DNA of 64,000 nucleotides from Pseudomonadota bacterium (GTDB lineage Bacteria; Desulfobacterota; Binatia; Binatales; Binataceae), in NCBI GenBank assembly GCA_021325025.1, contig JAJPHZ010000022.1, positions 74,646-138,645 of the forward strand. Reading direction: 5' to 3'. Within the stretch, counting starts at the first letter, position 1. Each line of letters begins with the position of its first letter. The notes beneath the pieces are model-generated. The model was given only the letters and a program-made list of their open reading frames with translations. It made no database searches and was not told where the DNA came from. This document shows positions 565 to 56,412 of the stretch, piece by piece. The translations under genes and the position numbers were made by a program.

Positions 565-586
565 CGCGATGCCGGGGAGCAGGACA

Positions 587-1399
587 ATGAGAATGAGCGA
601 AAACTTCGTGGCAGCGTGGGCTGTGGCCGCAGGCCTGATGCTGGCCGGATGCGCGCCGGTTGCCACCAACGAGGGCGCCGAGCAATGGCGGCCGGTCTCC
701 GCCATGGCGGGCACCAGTCCGCAACTGGCGCAAAGCGAAGGCCGCCTGGCAAGGCAATGCGGCGGCGCGAATGGCGCGCGCGAGTACACCAACGCCACGC
801 TCGGCGAAGAGCGCACCGTCTACCGCATCCAGCGCGGCGACAAGCTGCATTTGACTTTCTACCGCAACGGCGAGTTGGACCGTTACGTCGTGGTGCGCCC
901 CGACGGCCGCTTTACGATTGAGCCGTTCGGCGACGTTTTGGCGGCCGGGCTTACGCCGGCGCAACTGGCGCAAAAGCTCGACGCCATCTTCTCCGAGGCG
1001 CTGTATGAGCCGAGCGCGGCAGTCAGCGTCATCGACAGTCCCTTCCGCAAGGTCTTTGTCGGCGGGCAGGTCAATTACCCCGGAGCGGTCAATCTGCGGC
1101 CGGGCATGACCGCCACGCAGGCGATTATCTCTACCGGATGGTTTCGCGATGATGCGCGCTACGACCAGATCGTGCTGATCCGGCGCGACGCCTGCGGAGA
1201 GGCCTACGGCACCTTTATTCAGGTGGCCAAGGCGGTGGCGCAGGCATCGGACAATCACCTGCAGGACGTGGCGCTGCTGCCCAACGACATCATCGTGGTG
1301 CCGCGCACCACGATCGGCAACCTCAACCTGTTCGTCAAGCAATACATCCGGGGCATGCTGCCGATGGAGCCCTATCTGAGCCTGGGGCCGCCGCTGTAA
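587..1399 (+). CDS. Wza-like polysaccharide export outer-membrane lipoprotein (Poly_export + SLBB domains)
   Basis: Lipobox LAGC after a signal peptide. Poly_export-type motifs are present (YRIQRGDKLHLTFY, PDGRFTIEPFGDV) followed by an SLBB-like segment (VFVGGQVNYPGAVNLRPGMTATQAI). A GGGGAG RBS sits 7 nt before ATG 587. Alternative starts are 569 and 593. Confidence 0.8.
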   Translation: MRMSENFVAAWAVAAGLMLAGCAPVATNEGAEQWRPVSAMAGTSPQLAQSEGRLARQCGGANGAREYTNATLGEERTVYRIQRGDKLHLTFYRNGELDRYVVVRPDGRFTIEPFGDVLAAGLTPAQLAQKLDAIFSEALYEPSAAVSVIDSPFRKVFVGGQVNYPGAVNLRPGMTATQAIISTGWFRDDARYDQIVLIRRDACGEAYGTFIQVAKAVAQASDNHLQDVALLPNDIIVVPRTTIGNLNLFVKQYIRGMLPMEPYLSLGPPL

Positions 1400-1423
1400 G
1401 CGCTGCGCTGACAAGGGGGGAAC

Positions 1424-2956
1424 ATGAAACATCACGAGCCCGCGGTTTGGCTGGAGACGATTTGGCGCCGGCGCCGCCCCGCCGCCTGGACGGCGGCGGG
1501 GCTGTTCGCGCTGATCGCGGCCGGCACCTTTGCATATCCGCCGATTTATGAATCCAGCGCGCGGGTTCTGGTCTCGCCCAACCGCGCCCACTATATCGTA
1601 TCGCCCGCCCTGCAATCGGCCAGCGACCCTAACGCGCCGGTGGTCAACGACCGCGAGATCGGCGAGCAGGACCTCAACTCCGAAATGGAGCTGATCACCC
1701 AGCGCCGCCTGATCGAGCAGGCTCTGGCGGATATGGCGGGGCGCGAGCCGGCGCCCAGCCTGCTCGGCCGCGCGCTCAACGCGCTGGCCGGCCTGCCGGT
1801 CGAGCTCAGCGCGATGCTGCACGGCGCGCCGCGGCCGACCGCGCTGCAGCGCCGGGCGCGGGCGGCGGAACGGCGCCTGTCGGCCAGCGTGATTCGCAAG
1901 TCCGATCTGCTGGAAGTCTCCTTCCGCTCGCGCCATCCGCAGTGGAGCCGCGAGTTCCTGTCCGCGCTGCTCAAGCGCTACTTCGAACTGCACGCGCAAA
2001 TCGTGCACGACGCGCGCTCCGAGCGCTTCTTCGAGCAGCAGATCCTGCGCCGCCGCCAGGCCCTGCACGCCGCCGAAGACCATCTGCGCGCCGTGCGCGA
2101 GCAGACCGGCATCCTGAGTCTTGCCGATCAGAGTGAAGCGATTGTCTACCAATTGTCGGGGTTTCAGGCCGAGTATCGCAAAAATCACAGCCGCCTGGAC
2201 GGCGTCAACCGCCAAATCGCGGCGCTGGAGGAAGGACTCAAGCAGTCGCCGATGCGTCTGCTCAAGGAGGTCAAGAGCGCGCCCAACCCGGCTTATGAGG
2301 CGCTCAAACCCAAGGTGCTGGCGCTCCAACTCAATCGCGACGACGTGCTGCGGCGCTATCGCCCCTCCAGCAAGCTGGCGCGCGAGGTAACCCAACAGAC
2401 TGCCAACGCCCAGAGTGTGCTGGAGCAGGAAGATTATCCCAAGGTGATCGAGCGGCTGAGCGACCTCAGTCCGATATGGCTGGGGCTCGCCTCCAATCTG
2501 GCGCAGGCGCGCGTGACCGCGGCGGCGCTGGCGCAAAGCCAGCGCACGCTGGCGGCCGAAATACAGACCTATCAAGCCGAACTGCAGCGTCTGACCAATG
2601 ACGGAGTGGAAGTGGAGCGGGCTGTGCGCGAGGTGGAGGCGGGCAATGAGGCGTATCTCTCCTACCTGCGCAAGGGCGAGCAGGCGCGCGCCGAGCTGCA
2701 ATTGAACGAAAGCCGAATCATGAACGTGGTGTTGGCGATGCCGCCCACCGAACCCATCGAACCGCGGTTTCCCCGTGCCGACCTCAACCTCGCCGCCGGC
2801 CTGGTGTTGGCGCTGTTTGCGGGTCTGGCCGCGGCGTGGTGGGAGGAGCGCCGCGATCCCACCATTTACTCGGCCGCGGCCATTGCAGAATCCGCGCCGG
2901 CGCCGGTTGTCGCGGTGCTGCGCGCGTGCGCGAAACCGGGCGCCGCCGGCGCCTGA
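1424..2956 (+). CDS. Polysaccharide co-polymerase / chain-length determinant (Wzz/GumC-like, PCP family, no kinase domain)
   Basis: N-terminal TM helix, a Wzz-like motif (PPIYESSARVLV), a long coiled-coil periplasmic region and a C-terminal TM helix (LNLAAGLVLALFAGLAAAWWEERRDP). A GGGGGGA RBS precedes the ATG. Confidence 0.75.
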   Translation: MKHHEPAVWLETIWRRRRPAAWTAAGLFALIAAGTFAYPPIYESSARVLVSPNRAHYIVSPALQSASDPNAPVVNDREIGEQDLNSEMELITQRRLIEQALADMAGREPAPSLLGRALNALAGLPVELSAMLHGAPRPTALQRRARAAERRLSASVIRKSDLLEVSFRSRHPQWSREFLSALLKRYFELHAQIVHDARSERFFEQQILRRRQALHAAEDHLRAVREQTGILSLADQSEAIVYQLSGFQAEYRKNHSRLDGVNRQIAALEEGLKQSPMRLLKEVKSAPNPAYEALKPKVLALQLNRDDVLRRYRPSSKLAREVTQQTANAQSVLEQEDYPKVIERLSDLSPIWLGLASNLAQARVTAAALAQSQRTLAAEIQTYQAELQRLTNDGVEVERAVREVEAGNEAYLSYLRKGEQARAELQLNESRIMNVVLAMPPTEPIEPRFPRADLNLAAGLVLALFAGLAAAWWEERRDPTIYSAAAIAESAPAPVVAVLRACAKPGAAGA

Positions 2957-2967
2957 GAAGCAAGGAG

Positions 2968-3687
2968 ATGAAAGTGCCCGACACTGCACAGGTAGCAGGC
3001 GCGCCGCAACCCGCACCGACGGCCGCCGCCATCCAGGGGGCGCCGGTCGCTGAACCGGCAATGCTCATGGTGCGCAGCGCAGGAATCCGGATGCTGACCG
3101 AACCGATCGCGGCGGCGGCCCGCCTGACGGGCCATACACGGGTCCTGATCGCCGCCTGCCGCCCCGGCGACGGCGCATCGACGGTAGCCGGCGCCCTGGC
3201 CCTGGACCTGGCGAGCCGACTCGGCATCGACACGCTGCTGGTTACCGCCGACGGCGCCGGTGCTGAAAGCCCGGCCGCCGGCAATGGCCGTCCGGTGCGG
3301 ACCAACCAAACCGGTGTGCCGCATCTGTGGCTCGCGCGCTGTACCAGATCCGGCGAGCCGGCGCGCGGCGGCGCGGCTGACGGCGAGCGTGCCGAGCGCG
3401 ACGCCGTCGTCGAGGAGCTGCGTGCGATCATCGGGCGTTATCGCGCCGCAATCATCGACCTCGGCGTGGTGCGCCTGGATGCACGCATGCTGGCGCTGGC
3501 GCGTCCCGAAGATCCGGTACTGGTGGTGGCGCGCTACGGATGCACGCAGCGCGAGGAACTGGCCGCCACACTGGCCGTAATCAACGTGGCCAACGCCAAA
3601 AGCGCCGGCGTGATTCTCAACGGCTACGAAAGTCCGGCCGCCGATCGGCTGCCGTGGATTTCGCATCCGGAGCACGAAGGGCGATGA
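2968..3687 (+). CDS. Degenerate BY-kinase/MinD-like P-loop protein (predicted pseudo-kinase partner of the PCP)
   Basis: AAGGAG RBS 2962-2967 then ATG 2968. A Walker-A-like segment (VLIAACRPGDGASTVAGALALDLA) resembles BY-kinase SxxGEGKST but lacks the Lys. The Walker-B-like segment (AAIIDLGVV) lacks the DxPP signature. Confidence 0.55.
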   Translation: MKVPDTAQVAGAPQPAPTAAAIQGAPVAEPAMLMVRSAGIRMLTEPIAAAARLTGHTRVLIAACRPGDGASTVAGALALDLASRLGIDTLLVTADGAGAESPAAGNGRPVRTNQTGVPHLWLARCTRSGEPARGGAADGERAERDAVVEELRAIIGRYRAAIIDLGVVRLDARMLALARPEDPVLVVARYGCTQREELAATLAVINVANAKSAGVILNGYESPAADRLPWISHPEHEGR

Positions 3688-4760
3688 ATCGGTCCGACAT
3701 CGGCGGCGATGGCCCGCCGGTCACAGCGCGCCGGCTGCGCGGAGTAGCAGTGGTGGGACTTGGTTACTGGGGACCCAACTGGGTGCGCAATCTGCAAGCC
3801 AGCGGGGTTTGCGATCGGATCGTAGCCTGCGACCTCGACGCCGCGCGCCGCCGCCACGTGGAACGGCTTTACCCGGGGGTGCGCACCTTCTCCAGTATCG
3901 ATCCGATCCTGGCCGACCCCGAAATCGAAGCGGTTATCATCGCCACTCCGGTGCACACCCATTGGGAGCTGGGGCGCCGATGCCTTGGGGCGGACAAATC
4001 GCTGCTGGTGGAAAAGCCACTGGCCTCCTCGGTCAAGCAGTGTGCGGAGCTGATCGAGATGGCGGCGGCGCGTGGTCTGGTGCTGATGGTCGGCCACACC
4101 TTCGAGTACAGCGCCTCGGTCATCAAGCTGTGCGAAATCGTCAATGCCGGCGAACTGGGCGAGATTTTCTACATCAGCTCCATCCGCACCAACCTGGGTC
4201 TGCTCCAGCAGGACATCAACGTGGTGTGGGACCTGGCGCCGCACGACATCTCGATCATCCTGGCGATTTTGGGCCGCGCCCCCGAATCGGTGAACTGCCA
4301 GGGGCGCAGCCACTACAACCCCGGCATCGAGGACGTCGCGATGCTGACCATGAGCTTTTCGGGCAACGTGATCGCCTTTGTGCATGTCAGTTGGCTGGAT
4401 CCCAACAAGATTCGCCGCATCACCGTGGTCGGTTCGCGCAAGATGCTGATCTACGACGACATCGCCTACCAGGAGCCGATCCGCATTTATGACAAGGGCG
4501 TCAGCGTGCTGCCCTACTACGACACCTTCGGCGAGTTCCGCTTCACCTACCGCTACGGCGACATTCTGGCGCCGCGGGTGGCGGAGGCCGAACCGCTCAA
4601 GGCCGAAACCGAGCACTTTATCGATTGCGTGCTGAACAAGCGCCGGCCGCGCAGCGACGGATTAAGCGGCCTGCGCGTGGTCAGCGTGCTGGAGGGGGCC
4701 GACGCCTCGCTGCGCCGCGACGGCGCGCTGGTGCCGGTCAAATACGCGGTGGCGAAATGA
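3684..4760 (+). CDS. Gfo/Idh/MocA-family NAD-dependent sugar-nucleotide dehydrogenase (WbpB/WlbA-like UDP-GlcNAcA 3-dehydrogenase)
   Basis: Rossmann motif VAVVGLGYWGPNWVRNL and Gfo/Idh/MocA core (EKPLASSVKQCAELIEMAAARGLVLMVGHTFEY). The ATGA start/stop overlaps the upstream gene. Confidence 0.75.
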   Translation: MNRSDIGGDGPPVTARRLRGVAVVGLGYWGPNWVRNLQASGVCDRIVACDLDAARRRHVERLYPGVRTFSSIDPILADPEIEAVIIATPVHTHWELGRRCLGADKSLLVEKPLASSVKQCAELIEMAAARGLVLMVGHTFEYSASVIKLCEIVNAGELGEIFYISSIRTNLGLLQQDINVVWDLAPHDISIILAILGRAPESVNCQGRSHYNPGIEDVAMLTMSFSGNVIAFVHVSWLDPNKIRRITVVGSRKMLIYDDIAYQEPIRIYDKGVSVLPYYDTFGEFRFTYRYGDILAPRVAEAEPLKAETEHFIDCVLNKRRPRSDGLSGLRVVSVLEGADASLRRDGALVPVKYAVAK

Positions 4761-5257
4761 GCAATTCCTCTCTGCCGCCCAATGTCGTGGTGGCGCCCGA
4801 TGTCAAGCTGGGCCGCGGCGTCAGGCTGTCGCCCTTCGTCAACCTCTACGGCTGCTCGATCGGCGAGGAGACCACCATCGGGGCGTTTGTCGAAATCCAG
4901 CGCGGCGCCAGGATCGGGCGGCGCTGCAAGATCTCCAGCCATAGCTTTGTGTGCGACGGCGTGGAAATCGAGGACGAAGTCTTCGTCGGCCACGGCGTGG
5001 TTTTCATCAACGATCGCTATCCGCGCGCCACCAACCCGGACGGCTCGCTCAAAAGCGCGGGGGACTGGGCGATGGAACGGACCGTGGTGCGCCGGCGCGC
5101 GGCGATCGGCAGCGGCGCCGTGATCATGTGCGGAGTTGAAATCGGCGAGGGCGCGTTGGTGGGAGCGGGCGCGCTGGTCACGCGCAACGTCGCGCCCGGA
5201 GCGCTGGTGGCGGGAAATGCCAGCCGTCACTACGCCGGTGTGGCACCCCGGGATTAG
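4757..5257 (+). CDS. Left-handed beta-helix (hexapeptide-repeat) N-acetyltransferase, WbpD-like
   Basis: Repeated hexapeptide [LIV]-G-x-x-x-x units (VKLGRGVRLSPFVNLYGCSIGEETTIGAFVEIQRGARIG...). Its position between the WbpB-like and WbpE-like genes fits. ATGA overlap with the upstream stop. Confidence 0.75.
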   Translation: MSNSSLPPNVVVAPDVKLGRGVRLSPFVNLYGCSIGEETTIGAFVEIQRGARIGRRCKISSHSFVCDGVEIEDEVFVGHGVVFINDRYPRATNPDGSLKSAGDWAMERTVVRRRAAIGSGAVIMCGVEIGEGALVGAGALVTRNVAPGALVAGNASRHYAGVAPRD

Positions 5258-5265
5258 GTCGGCAT

Positions 5266-6396
5266 ATGAGTATCAAATTTCTGGATCTGGCGGCGCAAAA
5301 TCGCGAAATCGCCCAGCGTGCCGCCCGCGAGTTGGAGGCGCTGCACGCCGCGACCAGTTACGTGGGCGGTCCGGCGCTGGCCGCGTTCGAGCGGGAGTTC
5401 GCCGCCTACCTCGGGGTCAAGTACGTCGTCGGCGTCGGCAGCGGCAGCGACGCCCTGCGCCTGGCGCTGCTCGCACTGGGTATCGGCCCGGGCGATGGCG
5501 TGATCACGGTGCCGATGACCTTCATTGCCACCGCGGCGGCCATCGTGCAGGCGGGCGCGGTGCCCGAATTCGTCGACGTCGATCCCTCGACCTGCAACCT
5601 CAGTCCCGACCATCTGTGCCGCTACCTGGAGGCGGGGCGCTTCCGGTCGCCCAACGGACCACGCGCCGTAATCCCGGTGGACCTCTACGGGCTGCCCTGC
5701 GCGATGGACCAGGTCGCCGCGATCGCGCACCAGTATAAACTGCTGGTAGTCGAAGATGCCTGTCAGGCGCATGGTGCGCGGCTGTCAGTAGGGGGCCGAT
5801 GGGTCCGGGCGGGCACGCTCGCCGACGCCGGCTGCTTCAGCTTCTATCCGGCCAAGAACCTGGGCTGCTGGGGCCAGGGCGGTGCGCTTGCCACCAACGA
5901 CGAACGGCTGGCCGCGGTCGCGGCGCGGCTGGCCGACCACGGCCGCACGTCCCATTATGGACACGAGGCTTACGGCTACAACGCCCGGCTCGACACGCTC
6001 CAGGCGGCGGTGCTGCGCGCCAAGCTGGAGCATCTGGAGGACTGGAACCGGCGCCGGCGCGCGATTGCCGCGCGCTACCGCGAACTGCTCAACGGCTGCG
6101 GCGCGCTGCTGCCCGAGGAACCGGCAGGATTGGAATCCTGCTACCATCTGTTCACCATCCGCAGCGCCCGGCGCGACGCCATCCGCGCGGCGCTCAACGC
6201 GGCCGCAATCGGCAACGGCATCCATTATCCGCTCCCGCTCCACCTGCAGCCGGCCTGCGCCGCGCTGGGTTATCGGCCGGGCGATTTTCCCGCCAGCGAA
6301 CGCATCGCCGAAACCACCCTGTCGCTGCCGATGCATCCGCATCTGACCGACGACGAGGTCGCAACCGTCGCCGCAGTGGTACGCGGCGCGTTGTAG
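5266..6396 (+). CDS. DegT/DnrJ/EryC1/StrS-family PLP-dependent sugar aminotransferase (WbpE-like)
   Basis: Family-typical N-terminus (ELEALHAATSYVGGPALAAFEREFAAYLGVKYVVGVGSGSDALRLAL) and length of about 375 aa. Confidence 0.8.
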   Translation: MSIKFLDLAAQNREIAQRAARELEALHAATSYVGGPALAAFEREFAAYLGVKYVVGVGSGSDALRLALLALGIGPGDGVITVPMTFIATAAAIVQAGAVPEFVDVDPSTCNLSPDHLCRYLEAGRFRSPNGPRAVIPVDLYGLPCAMDQVAAIAHQYKLLVVEDACQAHGARLSVGGRWVRAGTLADAGCFSFYPAKNLGCWGQGGALATNDERLAAVAARLADHGRTSHYGHEAYGYNARLDTLQAAVLRAKLEHLEDWNRRRRAIAARYRELLNGCGALLPEEPAGLESCYHLFTIRSARRDAIRAALNAAAIGNGIHYPLPLHLQPACAALGYRPGDFPASERIAETTLSLPMHPHLTDDEVATVAAVVRGAL

Positions 6397-6407
6397 GAGG
6401 GGCGGCG

Positions 6408-7064
6408 ATGGCGGCTAGCGCGACGCGCTCGGACCTGCGCGCCTTTAATCCAGTGCGCAAGCGGGTTCTGGACCTGGTGCTGCTGGTCCCAATCCTGCTG
6501 GTGGCCGGGCCGCTGATGGCGCTGGTGGCGCTGGCGATTTGGCTGTGCGACGGCCGCCCGATTCTGTTTCGCCAGGTGCGCCTGGGAATGGGTGGACGGC
6601 CGTTTGAAATGCTCAAGTTCCGCACCATGCGTCCGGCCAGCGACGCGGCCCATCGCGAGTACGCCGCCCGATGGATCGAACAAGGCCGCCCATTCAGCGA
6701 CGGAGATGGCGCGGTCTACAAAATGGCGGACGATCCGCGCATCACACGCCTGGGCGCCATCCTGCGCCGCTTCAGCCTGGACGAACTGCCCCAGCTCATC
6801 AACGTCGTGCGCGGCGAGATGAGTCTCATCGGGCCGCGGCCGGCGATTCCTTACGAAGTCGAGCATTACCAGCCCTGGCATCGCCGCCGCCTGGAGGCGC
6901 CGCCGGGGCTGACCGGGCTGTGGCAGGTAAGCGGACGCAACCGGCTGTCGTTCGACGAGATGGTACGCCTGGACATCGACTACATCGATCACTGGTCGGT
7001 GGCGCGCGACCTGGCCATCCTGGCGCGAACGCCACGCGCGGTTCTTGCGGGAGAAGGGCGATGA
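6408..7064 (+). CDS. Small bacterial sugar transferase (polyprenyl-phosphate phosphoglycosyltransferase, PglC/EpsL-like)
   Basis: AGGAGGGG RBS then ATG 6408. One N-terminal TM helix followed by the Bac_transf core ([24 protein letters not shown]...[21 protein letters not shown]). Confidence 0.8.
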
Positions 7065-8560
7065 AACGGGAGGCCGCGCATGCTCCTCGCGCCCAGGCCG
7101 ACGACCGCCGGCTGTGGCGGGCATTCGCCCGCAGCGTGCTGTTCAACGTGCAGGCCGAGTTGGTTGCCAACCTGATTCGGGTGGGCGGCGTGATTTTTCT
7201 GGCGCGCGCCCTGGAGCCGCGCGACTTCGGCCTGCTGCGCATCCTGATCGTGCTCGGCGCGATCGCCGCGCTGATCGGCACCGCCGGGTTTCCCGAAGCG
7301 GTCATCCAGCGCAAGGAACTGTCGGGCGAGCATCAGACCACCGCCTGCTACCTGACCGCGGCGTGCGCCGGCGCGGTCGCCGCGATGCTGTTCGCCGCTG
7401 CGCCGCTGATTGAACGGCTGATGGCGATGGGGCATCTGGGTGCGATGATTCGCCTGCTGTGCGTGCCGATCTTTGTCGAAGGCACCTCGGCAATCCCCAA
7501 CGCCATCCTGCAACGCGCGCTTCGCTACGACGCGCTGGCCGCCGCCGACATCATCGCGGAGGGCGGTTTCGTCGCCGCCGCCGTCGCGTTGATTTACCTG
7601 GGGTTGCCCCGCCTCAGCCTGCCCGGCGGTCTGGGTGCACGCGCCCTGCTGCGCGGCGTCGCGATCTGGGCCGCGGCACGATTTGTTCCACGCGGCGCGC
7701 CCAGCCTGGGCGCCGCGCGCGAGCTATGGCCGTTTGCGGTCAGTGTGCTGGGCGGACAGACCCTGGTGATCCTGTCGCAAAACGCGGACTACGTGATGGT
7801 TGGACGGCTGCTGGGCGGCCGCGCGCTGGGCTTCTACGGCATGGCCTGGGACCTGCTGCGTTTCATCCCCGAACGCCTGTACCGGGTGGTAGGCCGCGTC
7901 ACACTGCCCGCCTTCAGCGCCATCTAGGAGCGGCAAAGCGAGCTGGCGCGCAGCTATCGCGCACTGATCGCGATGGTCGGGCGGATGCTGCTGCCGGCGA
8001 TGGCGCTGCTGGCGATCGCGGCTCCCAAACTGATTGTTACGATCTACGGGACAAAGTGGATGCCCGCCGCGCTGCCGCTGCGGCTGCTCACACCCGGACT
8101 GGCGCTGATCGGACTGCGCCTGGCGATCGGCTCCATCTACTATGCGCGCGGCTTTCCCGCCACCGACATTTTCGTCCACGGCCTGCGGTTGATCGCAATC
8201 GTGGCGGCGGTGGGGCTGACGGCGCCGCTGGGATTGGCGGCGGTGTGCGCCGCGATGAGCGCGGTGGAAGGCGCCGTGAGCGTGGCCGGGCAGTGGATCG
8301 TCTGCCGCATGATCAGGCTGGGTGCGTTGACCTTGGCCGCCGCCACCCTGCCGGGATTGTACAGCGCGGTGCTGTGTTCGGTGGTTGCGCTGGCCGGTGC
8401 GGCGCTGGCGGCGTGGCTGGCGGTGGCGGCGTGGCTGGCGCTGCTGGTGATGCTGGCGCCGGCGGGAGCCGCGTGGTGCTGGCGCGAACGCGCCACCGTG
8501 CGCGTGCTGTTGGGCGGCACGGACTTGCTCTCCAGCGCCGCCGAAGCGATGGGAGGATAA
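7061..8560 (+). pseudogene. Wzx-type polysaccharide flippase (MOP superfamily) interrupted by an in-frame TAG at 7925-7927
   Basis: ORFs 7061..7927 and 7973..8560 are in the same frame (both coordinate mod 3 = 2). Together they read as one typical 12-TM Wzx (...LPAFSAI*ERQSELARSYRALIAMVGRMLLPAMALLAIAAPKLIVTIYGTKWMPA...). TAG is used as a genuine stop elsewhere in this window (6394-6396). Confidence 0.55.
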
Positions 8561-8563
8561 CGC

Positions 8564-9427
8564 GTGACGCCACGCTATCTTGCCATCACTCCGGCGCGCG
8601 ATGAGCAACGCTTCCTGCCCGGACTGATCGCCAGCATGCGCGCGCAAACCATCGCACCGCAGCGCTGGATCATCATCGACGACGCCTCCACCGATTGCAC
8701 CGGCGCCATCATCGACGAGGCCGCCCGCACAACGCCGTGGATTGAGCCGCATCATCTGAAATCGGATCGCCCGCGCCAGGCCGGCGGCGAATCGGTAATC
8801 ATGCGCTTTCTTACCCGCGATCGATGGCAGGACATGGACTTCATCTTCCGCCTCGACGCCGACTTGAGTTTCGGTCCCGACCTGGTCGCGTTGCTGCTTG
8901 CCGAATTTGAGCGCGACCCGCGCCTGGGCATCGCCAGCCCGATCCTGGCCGAGCCGGCCGGTGGCGGAAGATGGAAGGATGTTGCGCTGCGTCCGATGCA
9001 CACCCGAGGGGCGGCCAAGATGTACTCGCGCGCGTGCTTTGAAGTGGTGGGAAAGCTCGAACCCGAGCTGGGTTGGGACGTGATTGACGGGGTGCGAGCC
9101 CAGATGGCGGGGTTCAGGACGCGCACCTTTTCTCATATCCGCTGCTTTCACCATCGGCCGCAAGGCTCCGCCGGCGGCCGGCTGCGCGGGCACTACGCGC
9201 TGGGCCGCTCCGCCTGGTACGTGGGCTATTCGCCGCTGTTCCTGCTGGCCGCAGCCCTGCGGCGCATCGCTGAGCCGCCCTTCGCGTTGGGCTCGCTGAT
9301 GATTATCGCCGGATACCTGGAGGGTCTGGTGAAACGCCGTCCGCGCGTGGACGATCCCGACCTGATCAGGTTTGTACGCCGCCAACAGCGCCGGCGCCTG
9401 CTGCTGATGGACTCGCTGTGGAGCTGA
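8564..9427 (+). CDS. Family 2 glycosyltransferase
   Basis: GT-A N-terminus (LAITPARDEQRFLPGLIASMRAQTIAPQRWIIIDDASTD). GGGAGGA RBS then GTG start at 8564. Confidence 0.7.
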   Translation: MTPRYLAITPARDEQRFLPGLIASMRAQTIAPQRWIIIDDASTDCTGAIIDEAARTTPWIEPHHLKSDRPRQAGGESVIMRFLTRDRWQDMDFIFRLDADLSFGPDLVALLLAEFERDPRLGIASPILAEPAGGGRWKDVALRPMHTRGAAKMYSRACFEVVGKLEPELGWDVIDGVRAQMAGFRTRTFSHIRCFHHRPQGSAGGRLRGHYALGRSAWYVGYSPLFLLAAALRRIAEPPFALGSLMIIAGYLEGLVKRRPRVDDPDLIRFVRRQQRRRLLLMDSLWS

Positions 9428-9431
9428 GCTT

Positions 9432-10652
9432 GTGCTGGGGGGACACGAACAGAGCGCCGCACCGGTCAGCGCGCCTCAACCCGTAGCGCGCAGCGCGGCG
9501 ATGCCGGCGCAAAAGCGCGCCATGATGCTGGGGTACCTGACCTACAGCATCGACGCGCGGGTCAAGCGCCAGGTCAAGACGCTGGCCGCGGCCGGCTACG
9601 CCGTGGACGTGATTTGCCTGGCGGACGACATCGGCCAGGCGCGCGACGCCAATCTGATCGGTATCAAGGTGCCGCATTACCGGGGCCTCAGCCGCTGGCG
9701 CTATGTCCGCGCCTACGCAACGTTTTTCATCAAAGCCGCCTGGACCGCGGCGTGCCTGGCGATACGCCATCGCTACGACGTCGCGATCGTCTGCAGCATG
9801 CCCGACTTCATCGTCGCCTGCGCGCTGGGACCCAAGCTGCGCGGCGCGACCATCGTGCTCGACGTGCACGATCCGATGCCGGAACTCTACCGCGTCAAAT
9901 TCGGGCGGCCGGCCGGATGTCTGGGCGAACGGTTGCTGATGCTGGAGGAGCGGGTCAGCGCCTGGATGGCGGACCGGGTCCTGGCCACCCACGACCTGCA
10001 TCTCAGCCGGCTGGTGCAAGCGGGCATTCCGCGCAGCAAGCTGCGCGTCGTGCTCAACGCGCCCAATCCCGAGTTGTTTCCTTACAGCGACCGCCCGCTG
10101 CGGCGCGGCGGCGGTCTGCGCCTGGTCTATCAGGGCACGATGTCGGCGCGGCTGGGGATCGATGTGGCGATCCGCGCAATGCGCCTGCTGCGGGCACGCA
10201 TCCCGGGAATCGAACTGCTGCTGATCGGGAACGGCGAAGCGCTGGAGGATTACAAGCGGCTGGCTGGCGCGCTGGAGGTGGCGGACATCGTGCGCTTCGA
10301 GCCGCCCATCCCCGTGGAGCGCATCGCGCCGGTCCTGCATTCGTGTTCGATTGGCGTGGTCCCCAATCGCGACAATGCCGCCACCCGCCTGATGCTGCCG
10401 GTCAAGCTGATGGAATACGCGATGCTCGGGGTTCCGATCGCGGCGGCGCGGCTTGCGCCAATCCTGCAGTATTTCGACGCGCGTGCGGTGGAATTCTTCG
10501 AGCCGGAGAATCCGGCTGATCTGGCCGCCGCAATCGTGCGGCTTTATGAAAATCCCGACCGCCTTGCGCAAATGGCGGCCGCCGCCAATCGCGTCGCGCT
10601 GCGGCTGAGCTGCGGGTGGAGCGAAAACTACCTGGAGGCGATCGCATCGTGA
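9432..10652 (+). CDS. Family 4 (GT-B) glycosyltransferase
   Basis: C-terminal GT4 core (RLVYQGTMSARLGIDVAIRAMRLL...IELLLIGNGEALEDYKRLAG...LMEYAMLGVPIAAARL). The start is uncertain: GTG 9432 or ATG 9501 / ATG 9522 (MMLGYLTY begins the first beta strand). Confidence 0.7.
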   Translation: MLGGHEQSAAPVSAPQPVARSAAMPAQKRAMMLGYLTYSIDARVKRQVKTLAAAGYAVDVICLADDIGQARDANLIGIKVPHYRGLSRWRYVRAYATFFIKAAWTAACLAIRHRYDVAIVCSMPDFIVACALGPKLRGATIVLDVHDPMPELYRVKFGRPAGCLGERLLMLEERVSAWMADRVLATHDLHLSRLVQAGIPRSKLRVVLNAPNPELFPYSDRPLRRGGGLRLVYQGTMSARLGIDVAIRAMRLLRARIPGIELLLIGNGEALEDYKRLAGALEVADIVRFEPPIPVERIAPVLHSCSIGVVPNRDNAATRLMLPVKLMEYAMLGVPIAAARLAPILQYFDARAVEFFEPENPADLAAAIVRLYENPDRLAQMAAAANRVALRLSCGWSENYLEAIAS

Positions 10653-12574
10653 GCGCACCCACCATTGAGTTCCGCCCCTGGCCGGGCGAGCCGCATTACA
10701 CATCGCTCACCGCTGCCGCGCTCTTCATCGCGGCCCTTTCGATTTGGGCGCTGGCCGTGATGTTGTTCGCACCCGCCGCGATTACGACCCTGGCCCTGTT
10801 CGCCATCGCGCTGCTGTTGGTGTCGGCCGGCCTTGCCTACCAGCGCTCGGACTGGCGCATGCTCGCGTTGCTGCTGGTGGTCGAGGCGCTGCCGTCGGCC
10901 AATCTGCTGCCGATCACCGAAGATCAGCGCCCGCTGGTGCGCTATCCGCTGTACCTGTTCTTCTGCGTTCCAATGCTGCCCAAAGTATGGCGTTCGGGAA
11001 TTCTCTCGCACGGCGGTTTCCGTCTGTATTCGATCTACTTCGCTTGGGCACTGTTGAGCGCTACGTGGTCGCTGGTGCCGATATTCTCCTTCGGCCGCGC
11101 CCTGGCCTCGACCCTGCTGTTCGTGGCGCTGTGCTCGATCGCCCTCGACATCGCCGACAACGACGCGCTGCTGCGCGTCATCCGCTATGTGTTGGCGGCC
11201 TGCGCGATCCTCACCGCAATCATCGCGGTTACCGCCTTCATCCCCGGACTGGAATCCGCCTGGATGTTCGACGCCGAGTTGGGCGCCTATCGCCTGCAAG
11301 GCATCTTCGACTCGCCCAACCAGGTCGGCGAGGTGAACATGATAGCGATCGGCGCGGCGCTGGCCAGTTGGCAGTCCCTGCGTACCCGCACCTACAAGCT
11401 CGGTGCTGCGTTGCTGATCGTGGTCTCGGTGCTGATGATGGTCGCGGCGGACTCGCGCTCGGCGGCGGTTGCGATGATCGTGAGCATGGCGGCGCTGGCG
11501 ATCTGGCGCTTTGGATGGCGCGGCGTGTTCGGGGTGATGGTGGGCGTAGCGGCCGGGGTGTTCGTAGCCGGTCAGTTAAGTCCGCAGGCGCTGCTGTACC
11601 TGACCCGCAGCGACGTCGCAACGCTAACCGGCCGCACCCAGGTGATGCATTTTTCGCTGCATCGAGTGATGGAAAATCCGCTGCTCGGTTATGGTTTCGG
11701 CGCCGAGGGACAAATCTTCCACAACCGCTATTTCCCGTTGTGGGAAGACCTGTGGACGTGGGGACCGCGCATCCCCATCCATAACGGCTATCTCTCGCGT
11801 GCCGTCGGACTGGGCGTGCCCGCCGCGCTGCTGTGGGCGTTTTTGTTTGCGCGCCCGTTCGTGGTGCTGTTCAGCCGGCCCGCGGACCCCTACGGACTGC
11901 GCAAGCCCGTGGTGTTGCTGCTCGTGCTGCCGGTGCTCATTTTGTATCTGAGCGAAACCCTGGGCGGCGATTGCCGCTTCCCGGCCGGAATCGTCAGCAC
12001 GCTGGTGTGGGCGGTGGCAGAAAAGGAACGCCTGCGCGCCACGGGCGCGTTGCCTGCGCGCAATCAGTCGGCCTCAACCCCGGCGCCCGTGGTGCCCCGG
12101 CGCGCAATGTCCCGCCTGTTGTTCCTCGCCGGTTTCATCTTGCCAATAACCATCGCGTCCGCGCGCAGCGCCCACGCCTACCGCCTGCATGTCCCGTGCA
12201 CCAGCAGCCACGATTGCCCGCGCGGCGCGTTTTGCCGCCATAAGACGAATTTCCGCGGCCAGTGCATCGTGCCGCCCCTGATGCCGTTCGGCGTGTTTGA
12301 ACGGCGCCAGATCGAATTTCCCGCCCAGCCCCTTCCTTTCGAGCACGCGCCGGGCTCGATAGCGGTGCTGCGATGCTCGGTCAAAGAGCCCTGTCCGCCC
12401 GGCTTCGTGTGCGCGAAATACGGCACCTCCAGTCTGAAAGAATCGCTGTGTGTGCCTTCCTCCGAACCGTGCTGGTCAACCGCCGACTGCGCTCCGGAGG
12501 ACATCTGTGACAAGGCCAACGATGAATTCAGCCTCACCGGCGTCTGCCGGCCGCGCGAGGAGGTCGGGGAATAG
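10649..12574 (+). CDS. O-antigen polymerase/ligase-family membrane protein (Wzy-like) with a C-terminal Cys-rich extracytoplasmic extension
   Basis: GTG start overlaps the upstream stop (GTGA). Multiple TM helices and a Wzy_C-like loop (VLMMVAADSRSAAVAMIVSMAALAIW...HFSLHRVMENPLLGYGFG). The C-terminal roughly 130 aa carry three Cys-rich units (HDCPRGAFCRH...GQC; EPCPPGFVCAKYG...SLC; EPCWSTADCAPEDICDK...GVC). Confidence 0.7.
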   Translation: MSAPTIEFRPWPGEPHYTSLTAAALFIAALSIWALAVMLFAPAAITTLALFAIALLLVSAGLAYQRSDWRMLALLLVVEALPSANLLPITEDQRPLVRYPLYLFFCVPMLPKVWRSGILSHGGFRLYSIYFAWALLSATWSLVPIFSFGRALASTLLFVALCSIALDIADNDALLRVIRYVLAACAILTAIIAVTAFIPGLESAWMFDAELGAYRLQGIFDSPNQVGEVNMIAIGAALASWQSLRTRTYKLGAALLIVVSVLMMVAADSRSAAVAMIVSMAALAIWRFGWRGVFGVMVGVAAGVFVAGQLSPQALLYLTRSDVATLTGRTQVMHFSLHRVMENPLLGYGFGAEGQIFHNRYFPLWEDLWTWGPRIPIHNGYLSRAVGLGVPAALLWAFLFARPFVVLFSRPADPYGLRKPVVLLLVLPVLILYLSETLGGDCRFPAGIVSTLVWAVAEKERLRATGALPARNQSASTPAPVVPRRAMSRLLFLAGFILPITIASARSAHAYRLHVPCTSSHDCPRGAFCRHKTNFRGQCIVPPLMPFGVFERRQIEFPAQPLPFEHAPGSIAVLRCSVKEPCPPGFVCAKYGTSSLKESLCVPSSEPCWSTADCAPEDICDKANDEFSLTGVCRPREEVGE

Positions 12575-12623
12575 CGGTAACGCGCGCGCCCCGATCTCCA
12601 AACAAGGCGCGCGGAGCGCGGCG

Positions 12624-13487
12624 ATGGGCCTGATTGGCAACACCCCGTTGACCGTGCTGCGCGCCGCCGGCCGGACCTCGCGCTTGATTGCCGGCCTCGG
12701 CGCGCGCTCCGCAGGCGGGCGCTGCCTAATCCTGACCTACCATGACTTCGTCGACCGCGCCGCCGCCGACCTGTTTGCGCGGCAGATGCAATATCTAAGC
12801 GTTGCCGCAAGTGTGGTCACGCTGGACGCGCTGCTTGAGGCGGCGCACCGCGGCGCATCTCACGGCATCCGCTGCGCAATCACCTTCGACGATGGCTACG
12901 AAGCGGTTTACCGCGAGGCCCTCCCGCATCTGCAGGAACATGGCTTTCCGGCGACGCTATACCTCGCGAGCGGTTTCATCCGCGAATCATTGAATTTCGC
13001 CGATTGCAGCGGGCGGTCGGGACTGCGCCCGGGACGCCCGATGCTGTCATGGCGCCAGGTGCGTGAACTGGACCGATGCGGCGTATGCGTCGGCTCGCAC
13101 ATGAGCGAGCATGGCGATCTGTCGGTTTTAGGCAGGCACGAGGCGATGGAGCAGTTGCGCCGCTCGCGCATCGAGATAGAGCAGCGCCTGGGCAAGCGCT
13201 GCGAGCATTTCGCCTATCCCTTCGGCCGCTTCACCGCGCAGGCTGTGCAGTGGGTGCGCGAAGCGGGGTTTCGCACCGCCGCGACCACGGTGCATCGGCC
13301 GCTGCGCGCCAACGACGATCTCTTGAGGCTGCCCAGGGCGGGCATCCAGGAGCGCTATTCGCTGGAGGATTTCAAAAGCATCATCCGCGGCGACTGGGAC
13401 TTCATCGGCCTGCTCCAAACCCTGCGCCGCCCCGCCTTGCGGATGACTTGTGCGCGCGCTACGCGGTCACCTTACCCCGGTTCGTAA
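12624..13487 (+). CDS. Polysaccharide deacetylase (NodB-homology / CE4 family)
   Basis: NodB motifs: TFDDGY (motif 1), H-x4-H-like CVGSHMSEHGDL, and FAYPFG (motif 3-like). Confidence 0.7.
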   Translation: MGLIGNTPLTVLRAAGRTSRLIAGLGARSAGGRCLILTYHDFVDRAAADLFARQMQYLSVAASVVTLDALLEAAHRGASHGIRCAITFDDGYEAVYREALPHLQEHGFPATLYLASGFIRESLNFADCSGRSGLRPGRPMLSWRQVRELDRCGVCVGSHMSEHGDLSVLGRHEAMEQLRRSRIEIEQRLGKRCEHFAYPFGRFTAQAVQWVREAGFRTAATTVHRPLRANDDLLRLPRAGIQERYSLEDFKSIIRGDWDFIGLLQTLRRPALRMTCARATRSPYPGS

Positions 13488-14030
13488 GTAGTGTAGTCTG
13501 ATGTTTTGTCCCTGATTGCGGTAGTCGAGCAAAGGGTTCATCGAAGTTTGGCGCTGTGACTACAGCTGGCCCCGCCCGCGTGCCTTGGAGCGCAAGACTC
13601 TTAGAGCGGCCGTTTCGGCGTATCAGCACGACGGAGGACAGATCCCATCTTGGGACTCGCTGATTCGGCCCACTTTGGCCATGTTCTTACGCGCCCAATT
13701 CGCACCCATCGCCATGCTATAAGAGACTCCCCTCAAGGGGCGAGTTCCAGGCGGGGCGGCGCTCGAATTTCTTTCCGTCCAAGTGCCTATCGAAGGCGAT
13801 AGATATATTTCACTGGCCTTGGTTCATTACACTATCCGTGGCGCGTGACCCTCACGCTGAGAGGATTTTTCGACATGTGTGCCAGATTCGGACCGTGCGC
13901 CGCCGGCGATCCATCGCTTGTCCGCGGTTGGCATCGCCTGCCGGCAGCGCCGCGCACGCGAAAAAAATTTCGGTGGTGGAGCGGGTGTCCGGGGTTATCA
14001 TCTTTGAAGACTTTTGCCTTGGAGCATGCC

Positions 14031-14504
14031 ATGTGCAGACATCTTCTACTTGCCGCCCTGGTGCTGATGCCGGGATGCAGCGCGGTCAACTGGCAGAACT
14101 TCACCAGCTCTGCGCCCCAGCAAACCGTCGAGGCGCACCGCTTTGTGCTGGTTGACGCAAACGGTAAGCCGATCGCGGAATTAGGCGCGGCGCCGGGCGG
14201 TTCGGGACTGGTGCTGATGGATTCCACCGGCAAGCCGCGCGCCGCGCTGGTGCTGACCCGCAGCGGCGAACCGGGCCTGAAACTGTACGATCGCGCCGGC
14301 GTGGTGCGGGCGGCCCTGGTGGTCGCCAATGACGGCCGCTCGGGGGTGGCCCTTTATGATGAGCACAGCCGCAACCGCGCGGCACTAGCTACCAACCCTC
14401 AAGGCGCGGCAGCGCTGATGCTGTTGGACGGCGCCGGCCAACCCACCGCGGTCCTGCCTTCCTCCCCTGCACGCGGCACGCCGGCCAGCGCGCAATCAGG
14501 ATGA
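14031..14504 (+). CDS. Small secreted lipoprotein of unknown function with tandem roughly 17-aa repeats
   Basis: Lipoprotein signal MCRHLLLAALVLMPGC. At least five degenerate repeats of the form [LV]-x-D-x-x-G-K/Q-P-x-A-x-L (VLVDANGKPIAEL, VLMDSTGKPRAAL, KLYDRAGVVRAAL, ALYDEHSRNRAAL, MLLDGAGQPTAVL). Confidence 0.5.
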   Translation: MCRHLLLAALVLMPGCSAVNWQNFTSSAPQQTVEAHRFVLVDANGKPIAELGAAPGGSGLVLMDSTGKPRAALVLTRSGEPGLKLYDRAGVVRAALVVANDGRSGVALYDEHSRNRAALATNPQGAAALMLLDGAGQPTAVLPSSPARGTPASAQSG

Positions 14505-15692
14505 CCAACGCAGATCGGAATGCTTGGCGTGCTGCAAACGCGTGCCGCAGTTGCGGCATCCGGCGCTATGGCGCTCCAACAACGCCGAACACCCCGGGCA
14601 TCGGCGGCTCGTCGCGCGCACGAATCCATAGGCGCTCGCCGCCGACAACATCATCACGATCGCCATCGCCGCCGCGGTTGGAAGCGATGGGTTCGGGATA
14701 TCCGAAAAACTCCCGCTGATGGTCCAGTTCTGAATGTGTTGTCCGGCCGGCCGAATCGCCGGTGGCTCGGGAGCGACCGCGATCGAGGTTAGGAGTGAGT
14801 CGCCGGGATTGACGACCAGCACCGGTGCGGCCTGCTGAATCGCACCGGTCCCGTCGCGGCTGCGCGCCGGCGCCTCGGGCATCCTCTGATCGGGCCGTCT
14901 CACAACAGTTTGATCGGGCCGCTTCACAACAGAGGGAGCACGCGCCGCTTGCGGCATGGCCGGCGGGGCATCAGCAGCCAGAGCAGCGCGCCGTTGGGGC
15001 GGCGGGTCCGAATGCCGCGAACGTACCGGTGCTTCATCGGACTGATCCTGGTCGGTGGAGGTGGAGGGATGGTCCGCTCCGGTGCTGGAGGCGGCATTGG
15101 ATGATACCGACACGGACACGCGCGCGGTCGCATCTACCGCAGCCGTCACGCTGGGCAGCGCGGGCAGGCCGTTGACCGCCGAACTCAAGGCGGCGTCGGC
15201 GGAAGCAGCCACGGCGGCGGCCGCCGCCGCCGTGTAGCCCAACGCCTGCGCCATCCCTCGATCCGGCTGGAATGGCCCGACGCCCATTTGCAGGGCCGCT
15301 CTTTGCGCCGCCAGCGCTGCGCCGTCGGTGGTGCCGCTGACCGAATCCGTCGTTGACAGCGATGCCGTGGTACCACTGCCGCTGACATCGGCGCCGCCGC
15401 CGGCAGAGGTGCTGGCGCCGGCCGCAGCACCGCCGCTGCCAATCGCGGCGCCGCCGCTCGCTCCAACGCTGCCGCCGCCAACCGACAGGCCCGTGCTCGC
15501 ACCTACGCCGCCGCTGCCGCCAGGGGCCACGCCCGCCCCGATTGCAACCCCGGGCGCGCCGACACCCACCGACACGCCGCCCACCGCGACGCTCACGCCG
15601 CCAAATCCCAGGCAGGGCCAAGCGCCGAAGAACAACCCGGCCACACCGAACGACACCGCGGCAACCACCCTGATTATGCGCGCAAAGCTCAT
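14496..15692 (-). CDS. Gly/Ala/Ser-rich low-complexity membrane protein with a C-terminal CxxC-x10-CxxC zinc ribbon (unknown function)
   Basis: GAGGAG RBS 9 nt upstream of the ATG on the minus strand. An N-terminal hydrophobic segment is followed by a long GASV-rich region, a second TM helix (LPTAAAMAIVMMLSAASAYGFV), then CPGCSALLERHSAGCRNC. Only short ORFs lie on the opposite strand. High GC inflates ORF lengths, so confidence is moderate. Confidence 0.4.
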   Translation of the reverse strand: MSFARIIRVVAAVSFGVAGLFFGAWPCLGFGGVSVAVGGVSVGVGAPGVAIGAGVAPGGSGGVGASTGLSVGGGSVGASGGAAIGSGGAAAGASTSAGGGADVSGSGTTASLSTTDSVSGTTDGAALAAQRAALQMGVGPFQPDRGMAQALGYTAAAAAAVAASADAALSSAVNGLPALPSVTAAVDATARVSVSVSSNAASSTGADHPSTSTDQDQSDEAPVRSRHSDPPPQRRAALAADAPPAMPQAARAPSVVKRPDQTVVRRPDQRMPEAPARSRDGTGAIQQAAPVLVVNPGDSLLTSIAVAPEPPAIRPAGQHIQNWTISGSFSDIPNPSLPTAAAMAIVMMLSAASAYGFVRATSRRCPGCSALLERHSAGCRNCGTRLQHAKHSDLRWSS

Positions 15693-15874
15693 CGCCCGTA
15701 GCTCCTCAAAGACGAAAAGAAAGCCATCGCTAAGAGTCTAACCCGCAACGCCACGCAAAGGCGATGAAATTGTTGGGCGTCGAACTGGGCCGATTGCCCC
15801 CTGGCCAATCGCCATGCACGCCGGACAAATGATTGAAGGACAAGCCAAAAAGCTTGACAGCATGCCTTCCAACC

Positions 15875-15889
15875 AATAGATGAGTTAGG
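15875..15889 (+). promoter_or_regulatory. Conserved 15-nt motif TTAGGCAATAGGGTA abutting the rrf2 start, repeated upstream of yezD (16381..16395, TAAGTCAATAGGGTA)
   Basis: The two copies share 13 of 15 positions and both are preceded by short tandem repeats (CCAATAGATGAG / TAAGTCtagTAAGTC). This may be an Rrf2 operator and/or a shared SD context. Confidence 0.35.
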
Positions 15890-15898
15890 CAATAGGGT

Positions 15899-55050: not shown

Positions 55051-56412
55051 ATGAACCCGGCTGGCATCTGGCTGTCACTGCAAAAACGCAGCGCCTTCGG
55101 AGCTAATGTTGCTCTGACGGCTGCGACTAACCTTGCCATCGGAGTGCTTGGTCTGGTCACCGGAGTTCTCGCGGCGCGCCTTTTGGGCCCGCGCGGGCGA
55201 GGGGAGCTGGCGGCCATCCAAACCTACCCGATGCTACTCGCAAACCTGGCTATGCTGGGAACCGGTCCGTCGGTGGTCTATTTTTCGGCGCGTGATCCCG
55301 AACGCGCCGGGCGCTACCTTGGCTGCGCGGCTGTGATCGCGCTGCTTGCCTCCGCGCCTTTGATAACCGGCGGCTACCTGGCGATGCCGCTGTTGCTATC
55401 GGCCCAGTCGCCCCAAATCGTGACTGCGGCATGCTGGTACCTGATCAACGTACCCGTAGTCGCGATCATGTCGCTGTGGCTCTTTGTGCTGCGCGGCCGC
55501 AGTGATTTCCTGCCCTGGAACGCACTGCGGATTTTGCCGACCCTGGCTTGGCTGGCGGTGCTGGCTTCGGCCTGGTTGTGCGGAATCAGAGACCCGCGTC
55601 GCGTCGCGGCGGTTTACCTTGCCGCTCTATTCGCACTGTTAATCCCGTTCGAATTGATAGTCAAAAGGAACGTGCCGGGACGATTCACGCCCGAGGCGCG
55701 TCAATTCAGGCCGATGCTCGCCTATGGATTGCCTTGCGTGGCTTCCAGCTTGCCAGTGGTACTCAACCTGCGTCTGGATCAGATGTTGATGGCAGGCCTG
55801 CTGGCGCCCAGCGAACTCGGCCTGTACGTAGCGGCCGTTGCTTGGAGCGGCGCGATTAATCCTCTGATGAACGCCTTAAGTTCGGTGTTGTTTCCGAAGA
55901 TTGCTGCGCACAGGGCGGAAGCGGACCGCTTCCGCAGTTTCTTGCACGGCAGCCGCCTCGCGGTTGTGGTCGCCTTGATCACGGCGCCAATACTGGCTGC
56001 AGCCACTCCATGGGGCGTGGTTCTATTGTTCGGGGCCAAATTCCGCGGCGCGATCAAGGCGGCGCTGATACTGGTCCCGGCCGGGGCGGTGTCGGCACTC
56101 AACAGCGTGATCGAAGAGGGTTTTCGCGGCCTCGGCAAGCCGGCCGCGGTATTGTACGCCGAACTGGCCGGGCTGTTGATGACGATTGTCAGCTTGTATC
56201 TGCTGCTGCGCCCCATGGGGATCATCGGCGCGTCGATCGCTTCTTTGGCGGGTTATTCGACCGTAATGATGTCGCTGCTGCTTCAGGCCCGCTGGCTGAC
56301 GCACAAGTCGCCGGCTGAATTGCTGCTTCCGAGTCCGGAGGATGTTGTCGAAGGGCTTAAGCGCTTAGCCACATTGGCGCGGAGCATGGTTTTGGTGATA
56401 TCGCGCGCCTGA
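55051..56412 (+). CDS. Wzx-type polysaccharide flippase (MOP superfamily), second copy in the window
   Basis: 453 aa, about 12-14 TM helices, with Wzx-typical loop motifs (LGPRGRGELAAIQTY; LPCVASSLPVVLNLRLDQMLMAGL). Confidence 0.8.
   Translation: MNPAGIWLSLQKRSAFGANVALTAATNLAIGVLGLVTGVLAARLLGPRGRGELAAIQTYPMLLANLAMLGTGPSVVYFSARDPERAGRYLGCAAVIALLASAPLITGGYLAMPLLLSAQSPQIVTAACWYLINVPVVAIMSLWLFVLRGRSDFLPWNALRILPTLAWLAVLASAWLCGIRDPRRVAAVYLAALFALLIPFELIVKRNVPGRFTPEARQFRPMLAYGLPCVASSLPVVLNLRLDQMLMAGLLAPSELGLYVAAVAWSGAINPLMNALSSVLFPKIAAHRAEADRFRSFLHGSRLAVVVALITAPILAAATPWGVVLLFGAKFRGAIKAALILVPAGAVSALNSVIEEGFRGLGKPAAVLYAELAGLLMTIVSLYLLLRPMGIIGASIASLAGYSTVMMSLLLQARWLTHKSPAELLLPSPEDVVEGLKRLATLARSMVLVISRA

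Follow-up and report, generated by a model that had tools for sequence, protein, structure and literature searches.

A probable recent loss-of-function nonsense polymorphism in a PST/Wzx-type flippase gene of a soil Binataceae population

The stretch of DNA analysed here, referred to as the window, comprises 64,000 nucleotides of contig JAJPHZ010000022.1 from the Binataceae assembly GCA_021325025.1, and contains two polysaccharide gene clusters, locus A and locus B. Locus A is a Wzx/Wzy-type cluster whose first genes encode a Wza-like exporter, a Wzz/polysaccharide co-polymerase (PCP)-like protein, a 198-aa protein of unassigned family, a GFO_IDH sugar 3-dehydrogenase-like protein, a hexapeptide acetyltransferase and a DegT aminotransferase. 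These are followed by genes for an initiating phosphoglycosyltransferase, a flippase of the polysaccharide transporter (PST)/Wzx type, GT2 and GT4 glycosyltransferases, a 641-aa Wzy_C-domain protein and a polysaccharide deacetylase. The flippase gene, whose ATG overlaps the stop of the phosphoglycosyltransferase gene (ATGA), is the subject of this analysis: 7061-8560 on the forward strand is one 499-codon frame interrupted by one internal stop, a TAG at codon 289 (Table 1).

Read in the frame of the ATG at 7061, the sequence at the interruption is ...GCC ATC TAG GAG CGG..., and the open reading frames (ORFs) called on either side of it (288 and 195 aa) share this frame; in the ORF list, the first lies inside a longer, upstream-extended ORF. 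The joined protein gives a single unbroken alignment to PF13440 (Polysacc_synt_3) over the stop, from profile position 2 to 291 of 293 (E=1.1e-54). Taken separately, the halves match the same profile with E=2.3e-42 and 1.4e-05, the N-terminal fragment ending at profile position 243 and the C-terminal fragment picking up at 247. The joined protein scores 186 bits for PF13440 (cut-off 23) and 97 bits for PF01943 (cut-off 28.2), both above the gathering scores. The G+C content at third codon positions is 0.84 in the N-terminal half, 0.80 in the 45-nt linker and 0.88 in the C-terminal half. Because one Pfam alignment runs over the stop, and because third-position composition is even across it, the split is not a chance juxtaposition of two genes. 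A scan of both strands of the 64 kb for stops within coding-like sequence finds this TAG as the sole gene-internal stop; two further matches are ordinary boundaries between unrelated genes. The identical 288-aa product is called in other assemblies as well. An earlier, sequence-only reading of the window had described one Wzx-type flippase divided by a lone in-frame amber codon, with the rest of locus A, and locus B, intact, and this description holds: every other gene of locus A is whole, as is the flippase of locus B. Annotations should join the two ORFs into a single flippase gene marked as disrupted, rather than list two proteins, and should not treat the TAG as recoded.

Homologues of this flippase are oligosaccharide flippase family proteins of Candidatus Binataceae metagenome-assembled genomes (MAGs), the closest match in a scan of genome contigs being 76% identical. 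The comparison with orthologous loci that the sequence-only reading had proposed is clear in its outcome. Among 38 related genomic loci, codon 289 is CAG in 34, CAA in three and GCG (Ala) in one, so that Gln is encoded in 37 of 38 and a stop in none. Gln289 also belongs to the columns at least 90% conserved in an alignment of 66 sequences that extends to about 20% identity, and in the full-length homologues, which are 483-513 aa long, the aligned column is Gln throughout. The TAG is thus derived from CAG by a single C-to-T transition. A split Wzx as the conserved state, which the sequence-only reading had considered as a way in which its account could fail, is refuted: the homologues are each encoded as one full-length protein that carries Gln at the site, and neither the 38 loci nor roughly 100 full-length homologues contain a split here. 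The gene order of locus A is kept in the Binataceae relatives L004, L005 and L037, each of which has an uninterrupted flippase, and also in L006. Against the first three, the ratio of nonsynonymous to synonymous substitution rates (dN/dS) is about 0.16-0.19 for the N-terminal half and 0.23-0.37 for the C-terminal half. This second proposed comparison points to past purifying selection on both halves between species and thus to a gene that was functional until recently, with the qualification that dN/dS is blind to relaxation after the stop, the TAG allele being one base from an intact allele.

That intact allele is found in the same population, from which further contigs were recovered via exact-protein look-ups. 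The TAG is present without any other difference in L002 (ENA ERZ27279671, 13.3 kb, of which 11.6 kb overlap the window), L003 (JGI 3300027706), L045 (ENA ERZ27279669) and L046 (Logan SRR5579885), which are 100% identical in DNA to the window over 3.7-11.6 kb, and it is present with five extra substitutions in L044 (NCBI JBAIGS). The CAG codon is present in three contigs: L043 (Logan SRR24677575), where T7925C is the only difference over 5,698 bp; L042 (NCBI JBAIHT), which over 8,112 bp has T7925C and two substitutions in the GFO gene; and L001 (JGI 3300063276), which combines T7925C with A7318C (Glu86Asp) and a 48-bp in-frame deletion of 7225-7272. The protein encoded by JBAIHT and SRR24677575 (P0123, 499 aa) matches the joined protein of the window except at residue 289. 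JBAIGS corresponds to SRR24677604, from site Cen15 in October 2016 (31.8 °C), and JBAIHT to SRR24677575, from site Cen21 in October 2015 (33.8 °C); both sites are fire-affected soils at Centralia, Pennsylvania, sequenced by NovaSeq and assembled per sample with metaSPAdes (PMC11237453). The JGI data set is a sequencing effort separate from the Centralia NovaSeq series.

A sequencing or assembly error, with CAG as the true codon, had been among the explanations first considered for the stop. MAG consensus sequences can hold errors, and one TAG contig gives some reason for caution: all five extra substitutions in L044 (JBAIGS010040923.1; 2.3 kb, covering 5830-8103 of the window) are transversions, and four are nonsynonymous, namely M246R and A262D in the flippase, both at columns at least 90% conserved, and A216S and A287E in DegT. 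They may be errors from low coverage or signs that the locus is decaying in the nonsense background; they look error-like. The T at 7925 itself, however, recurs across different read sets and pipelines (JGI 3300027706, Logan SRR5579885, the two ENA assemblies, which were made with MEGAHIT, and the metaSPAdes assembly JBAIGS), amounting to four assembly pipelines and no fewer than two independent read sets (JGI 3300027706 and Cen15 2016), with C in sister samples. An artefact is thereby effectively refuted. An exact-pattern scan of a metagenome contig collection, using a 44-mer with N at 7925, found neither allele, the collection evidently being without these samples. The stop is genuine, and one natural population carries both it and the intact gene. 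Since the intact allele is only one base away, the mutation must be very recent, and the C-terminal part of the gene has not decayed.

Taken together, the interruption is very probably a recent, segregating loss-of-function nonsense polymorphism in a PST/Wzx-type flippase gene, real and neither an error nor a recoding event. Of the explanations offered by the sequence-only reading, recent nonsense mutation is the one borne out, the intact allele being the same at every other base over 5.7 kb and coming from the same soil system. The lesion has the marks of such an allele: a sense codon in orthologues, an intact allele one step away and the removal of the last six predicted transmembrane helices (TM9-14).

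The protein family is indicated by sequence, predicted fold and context alike. The intact allele was modelled with AlphaFold2 from the 66-sequence alignment. The model has a mean predicted local distance difference test score (pLDDT) of 91.3, a predicted template modelling score (pTM) of 0.88 and 14 long helices, and it fits the multidrug/oligosaccharidyl-lipid/polysaccharide (MOP) flippase fold, which is defined by two lobes with a total of 12-14 transmembrane helices enclosing a central cavity. Foldseek matches it over its full length to MurJ structures (5T77, 6CC4 and 7WAW; TM-score 0.70-0.77) and to E. coli WzxE (target-normalised TM-score 0.73-0.74), and MATE transporters are matched as well. 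Likeness to WzxE (PDB 9G9N, 9G95) and to PRK10459, the model for the colanic-acid flippase WzxC, is seen in the PF01943 and PF13440 matches and in PRK10459 being the best NCBIfam match. The gene is also situated as a wzx gene would be, between an initiating phosphoglycosyltransferase and glycosyltransferases, with Wzy_C, Wza and Wzz-like genes in the cluster; the Bac_transf, GT2, GT4, Wzy_C, Poly_export and Wzz domains of locus A are the company expected of a PST/Wzx-type flippase. It differs from WzxE in having 14 helices in the model, like MurJ, rather than 12, and from all named flippases in that every NCBIfam score falls below the curated cut-off, so that it is not an equivalog of any of them.

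The MurJ structures are the best full-length structural matches, TM13-14 included, and 5T77 additionally gives a weak profile match (E = 1e-4) over the TM8-TM11 region that contains the mutated site. However, sequence identity to MurJ is just 13-16%, and the setting is an exopolysaccharide or O-antigen locus rather than cell-wall synthesis. Pfam and NCBIfam scans of the flippase did not return the MurJ models (PF03023; NCBIfam MurJ), Pfam giving only PF13440 and PF01943. Identity as a MurJ lipid II flippase is rejected on these grounds, the likeness being limited to the fold. The gene is a PST/Wzx-type MOP flippase with a predicted role in translocating an Und-PP-linked oligosaccharide. The sister allele P0123 has the uninterrupted frame that the window copy lacks, and the window copy is a disrupted member, or pseudogene allele, of the family.

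In the model, residue 289 lies in a four-residue loop between helix 253-287 (TM8) and helix 292-329 (TM9). MOP flippases have an N-in topology, which would presumably place this loop in the cytoplasm. In its intact form, the protein would serve to flip the lipid-linked repeat unit of the polysaccharide made by locus A across the inner membrane. Once a C-to-T transition had turned the conserved Gln289 CAG into TAG, translation would halt after TM8, in this short and presumably cytoplasmic loop, giving a 288-aa product that keeps TM1-8 of the predicted fold and is without TM9-14, most of the C-lobe lining the transport cavity. To judge from the MOP fold, TM9-14 should be indispensable, and the TAG allele is most likely null or strongly hypomorphic for flipping. 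A second lesion in the same gene is found on the L001 haplotype, where the 48-bp deletion takes out most of TM2 (helix 53-74 in the model). A deletion between the GCCGCGC repeats that flank this segment is as expected of replication slippage, and the Glu86Asp change on the same contig is probably neutral, since Asp is also found in a homologue (P0010). Both the stop and the TM2 deletion are expected, from the modelled structure, to abolish function. The TAG allele segregates with an intact allele and an independent TM2-deletion allele in one Binataceae population of a coal-fire-heated soil.

The nearest known parallels are natural or laboratory wzx loss-of-function mutants (Pseudomonas aeruginosa wzx, Escherichia coli wzxB/wzxE, Streptococcus pneumoniae cpsJ), in which the same kind of lesion removes the flippase and leaves the initiating transferase intact, and in which the same outcome, dead-end lipid-linked intermediates, is expected (PMC12826051). 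In model organisms such a loss is usually harmful; undecaprenyl-phosphate is sequestered and suppressors are selected (PMC12826051; PMC11813082). Unlike these mutants, the present allele segregates in an uncultured soil population, and where the locus can be compared no suppressor is visible. The phosphoglycosyltransferase gene is the same in the TAG and CAG haplotypes, with differences only in the doubtful contig L044. The two GFO dehydrogenase differences were considered as a second-site suppressor and rejected, since at both positions the window has the residues of its closest orthologues and the changes are therefore derived on the CAG haplotype, not on the TAG haplotype.

Several points weigh against a recent loss of function as the full account. 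Some of the TAG assemblies may re-assemble the same reads, and 3300027706 and SRR5579885 probably represent one sample, so that the independent observations number at least two rather than six. The loss of function itself is read from the fold. A second-site change was sought in the 3.7-11.8 kb covered by both haplotypes, and none is visible on the TAG haplotype. Finally, the persistence of the TAG in several samples could mean that some function remains. If function is indeed lost, the cell may tolerate this because the locus is little expressed, because another flippase stands in, or through trace readthrough of the UAG. Some MOP flippases have relaxed specificity (PMC11759038), which makes substitution by the locus-B flippase or another one conceivable; within the window, the locus-B protein is the only candidate seen.

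Readthrough deserves separate consideration, both as a programmed event and as a trace activity. Programmed readthrough or suppression, raised by the sequence-only reading, is unsupported. As that reading had also stated, TAG is a functional stop elsewhere in the window, where it ends about nine other well-supported genes; the stop at codon 289 is absent from all 38 related loci and coexists with CAG in the same population. The 120 nt from 7915 to 8034 do not form an exceptional RNA fold (z = -1.39, with 16 of 200 shuffles folding at least as well), a tRNA scan of the 64 kb found no tRNA gene, and an Rfam scan of the window found no family. Pyrrolysine insertion or genome-wide reassignment of TAG is rejected, given the other genes that TAG ends and the polymorphism with CAG at this site.

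A leaky allele is a different matter. In such a case a near-cognate tRNA-Gln would at times decode the UAG, and a trace of full-length flippase would avert carrier sequestration, perhaps with the polysaccharide down-tuned. In bacteria, near-cognate tRNAs can insert Gln at UAG; the ancestral residue being Gln, this would restore the wild-type residue. A study in yeast places Gln among the residues put in at UAG by natural near-cognate tRNAs (PMC4150775). That the TAG persists in several samples, where the initiating transferase is intact and no suppressor can be seen, would also be easier to understand if some function remains. However, no stimulatory RNA structure is apparent, the absence of the stop from all 38 relatives means that nothing is programmed, and TAG terminates its other genes normally. 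Basal readthrough in bacteria is, moreover, typically well below 1%. A leaky allele is thus decidedly unlikely, and a nonsense allele that abolishes or severely reduces function remains the preferred explanation.

The two fragments might alternatively form a split but functional flippase: TM1-8 would combine in the membrane with a TM9-14 chain started separately, from ATG 7973 or a codon close to it. Polytopic transporters that are cut in two are sometimes able to reassemble; each ORF is intact and the two share a frame, the break falls in an inter-helix loop, and a ribosome terminating at the TAG is just 46 nt from ATG 7973. However, this first in-frame ATG past the stop encodes Met305, within TM9, and a start there drops about a third of the helix. 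No Shine-Dalgarno sequence is found upstream of 7973 or 7985, although several neighbouring genes have GGAGG-like sites; an AGGAG at 7926-7930, which overlaps the stop itself, has only a CTG beyond it, 12 nt further on. A split at this position is also absent from the related loci and full-length homologues, and at one base from the intact allele there has been no time for selection to shape such an arrangement. A functional split flippase is therefore highly improbable.

Phase variation, another of the mechanisms suggested for this stop, does not fit the sequence. The region around 7925 (GCCATCTAGGAGCGG) is without a repeat tract, and a repeat search of 6900-8700 returned only short scattered repeats, with no simple repeat or invertible element at 7925. 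The switch is a point substitution, and a classical phase-variable locus is not supported. Elsewhere in the gene, in its 3' part, an 18-nt tandem duplication that is almost perfect (GGCGCTGGCGGCGTGGCT / GGCGGTGGCGGCGTGGCT) occupies 8401-8436 and encodes ALAAWL-AVAAWL in the last transmembrane region; this is a potential slippage site.

Of the five credible variant events within the population over the roughly 9 kb compared, the 1.5-kb flippase gene holds three, two of them disruptive. A rough binomial estimate for this clustering gives P of about 0.04, a hint that flippase loss is selected for or tolerated. A stronger version would hold that loss of the locus-A flippase has been selected repeatedly in this soil population, as two independent lesions (the stop at Gln289 and the 16-residue deletion in TM2) on nearly identical haplotypes, and tolerated via trace UAG-to-Gln readthrough or the locus-B flippase. 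This is tentative and, on balance, unlikely. If true, it would suggest a pressure to shed or down-tune one surface polysaccharide, such as phage or thermal disturbance.

Among the related loci, the flippase is frameshifted only in L006 (9300-10200) and L038 (7400-10700). These were considered as cases of recurrent decay and rejected, both being from one MAG, SMAG_U6541 (DASZGF01). Frameshifts also occur there in the adjacent phosphoglycosyltransferase or DegT genes, which makes assembly quality the simpler explanation; if biological, the joint disruption of transferase and flippase would match the classical suppressor pattern. Gene calls for the orthologous flippase in other Binataceae assemblies include one that a frameshift fuses to the upstream Bac_transf gene (P0097, 520 aa, NCBI/ENA, on a 24.9-kb contig) and one that comprises a C-terminal fragment whose tail is aberrant (P0095, 280 aa, on a 1.19-Mb contig). 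Disrupted calls of this flippase thus recur over MAGs.

The phenomenon is well known in kind, involves no new mechanism and is of mild interest as population microdiversity. What is added is the documentation of an ancestral allele, a derived allele and a second lesion for one soil system, a clear-cut case in which strains of one uncultured soil lineage differ in whether a surface-polysaccharide pathway is on or off. It bears on whether cells in nature, as distinct from laboratory models, tolerate losing a flippase while the initiating transferase is intact. All three alleles are in a public seven-year metagenome series (PMC11237453; 69 Centralia metagenomes, SRR24677550-618), and their frequencies could thus be followed by site, year and soil temperature.

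Table 1. Coordinates of the flippase gene, its variants and associated features in the window
Feature	Position	Strand	Remarks
Locus A, Wzx/Wzy-type polysaccharide cluster	about 569..13487	+	All genes intact but the flippase
Initiating polyprenyl-phosphate glycosyl-phosphotransferase, small Bac_transf type, intact	6408..7064	+	PF02397; TIGR03025 and related models
Flippase 5' fragment	7061..7927	+	288 codons and premature TAG; encodes TM1-TM8
48-bp segment, in window, deleted in frame in L001	7225..7272	+	16 residues of TM2 (56-71); flanked by GCCGCGC direct repeats
A/C polymorphism	7318	+	Glu86 in window, Asp in L001
Premature amber TAG, derived from CAG (Gln289)	7925..7927	+	C-to-T transition at 7925
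In-frame 3' remainder of flippase gene	7928..8560	+	Encodes TM9-TM14; first ATG 7973 = Met305 (195-aa ORF, 7973..8560)
Second PST-family flippase, intact, locus B	55051..56412	+	Distant paralogue, about 24% identity to locus-A flippase

Between locus A and an Rrf2 regulator gene (13500-15900) are two ORFs, 13845-14504 on the forward strand and 14496-15692 on the reverse strand, both without a Pfam match. Upstream of locus A, regulatory genes of the Hpt and hybrid kinase types stand at the start of the window. Locus B, which runs from 45044 to beyond 63678, is a second polysaccharide cluster of lower GC content (about 0.59). Its genes encode a 1301-aa Wza-like protein with seven SLBB repeats, a Wzi protein, two methyltransferases (one of them TylF-like) and a sulfotransferase, as well as a PST flippase and Wzy of its own, three GT4 glycosyltransferases and an AsnB-type amidotransferase. 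This content suggests that the product of locus B is a sulfated or methylated capsule-like polymer.

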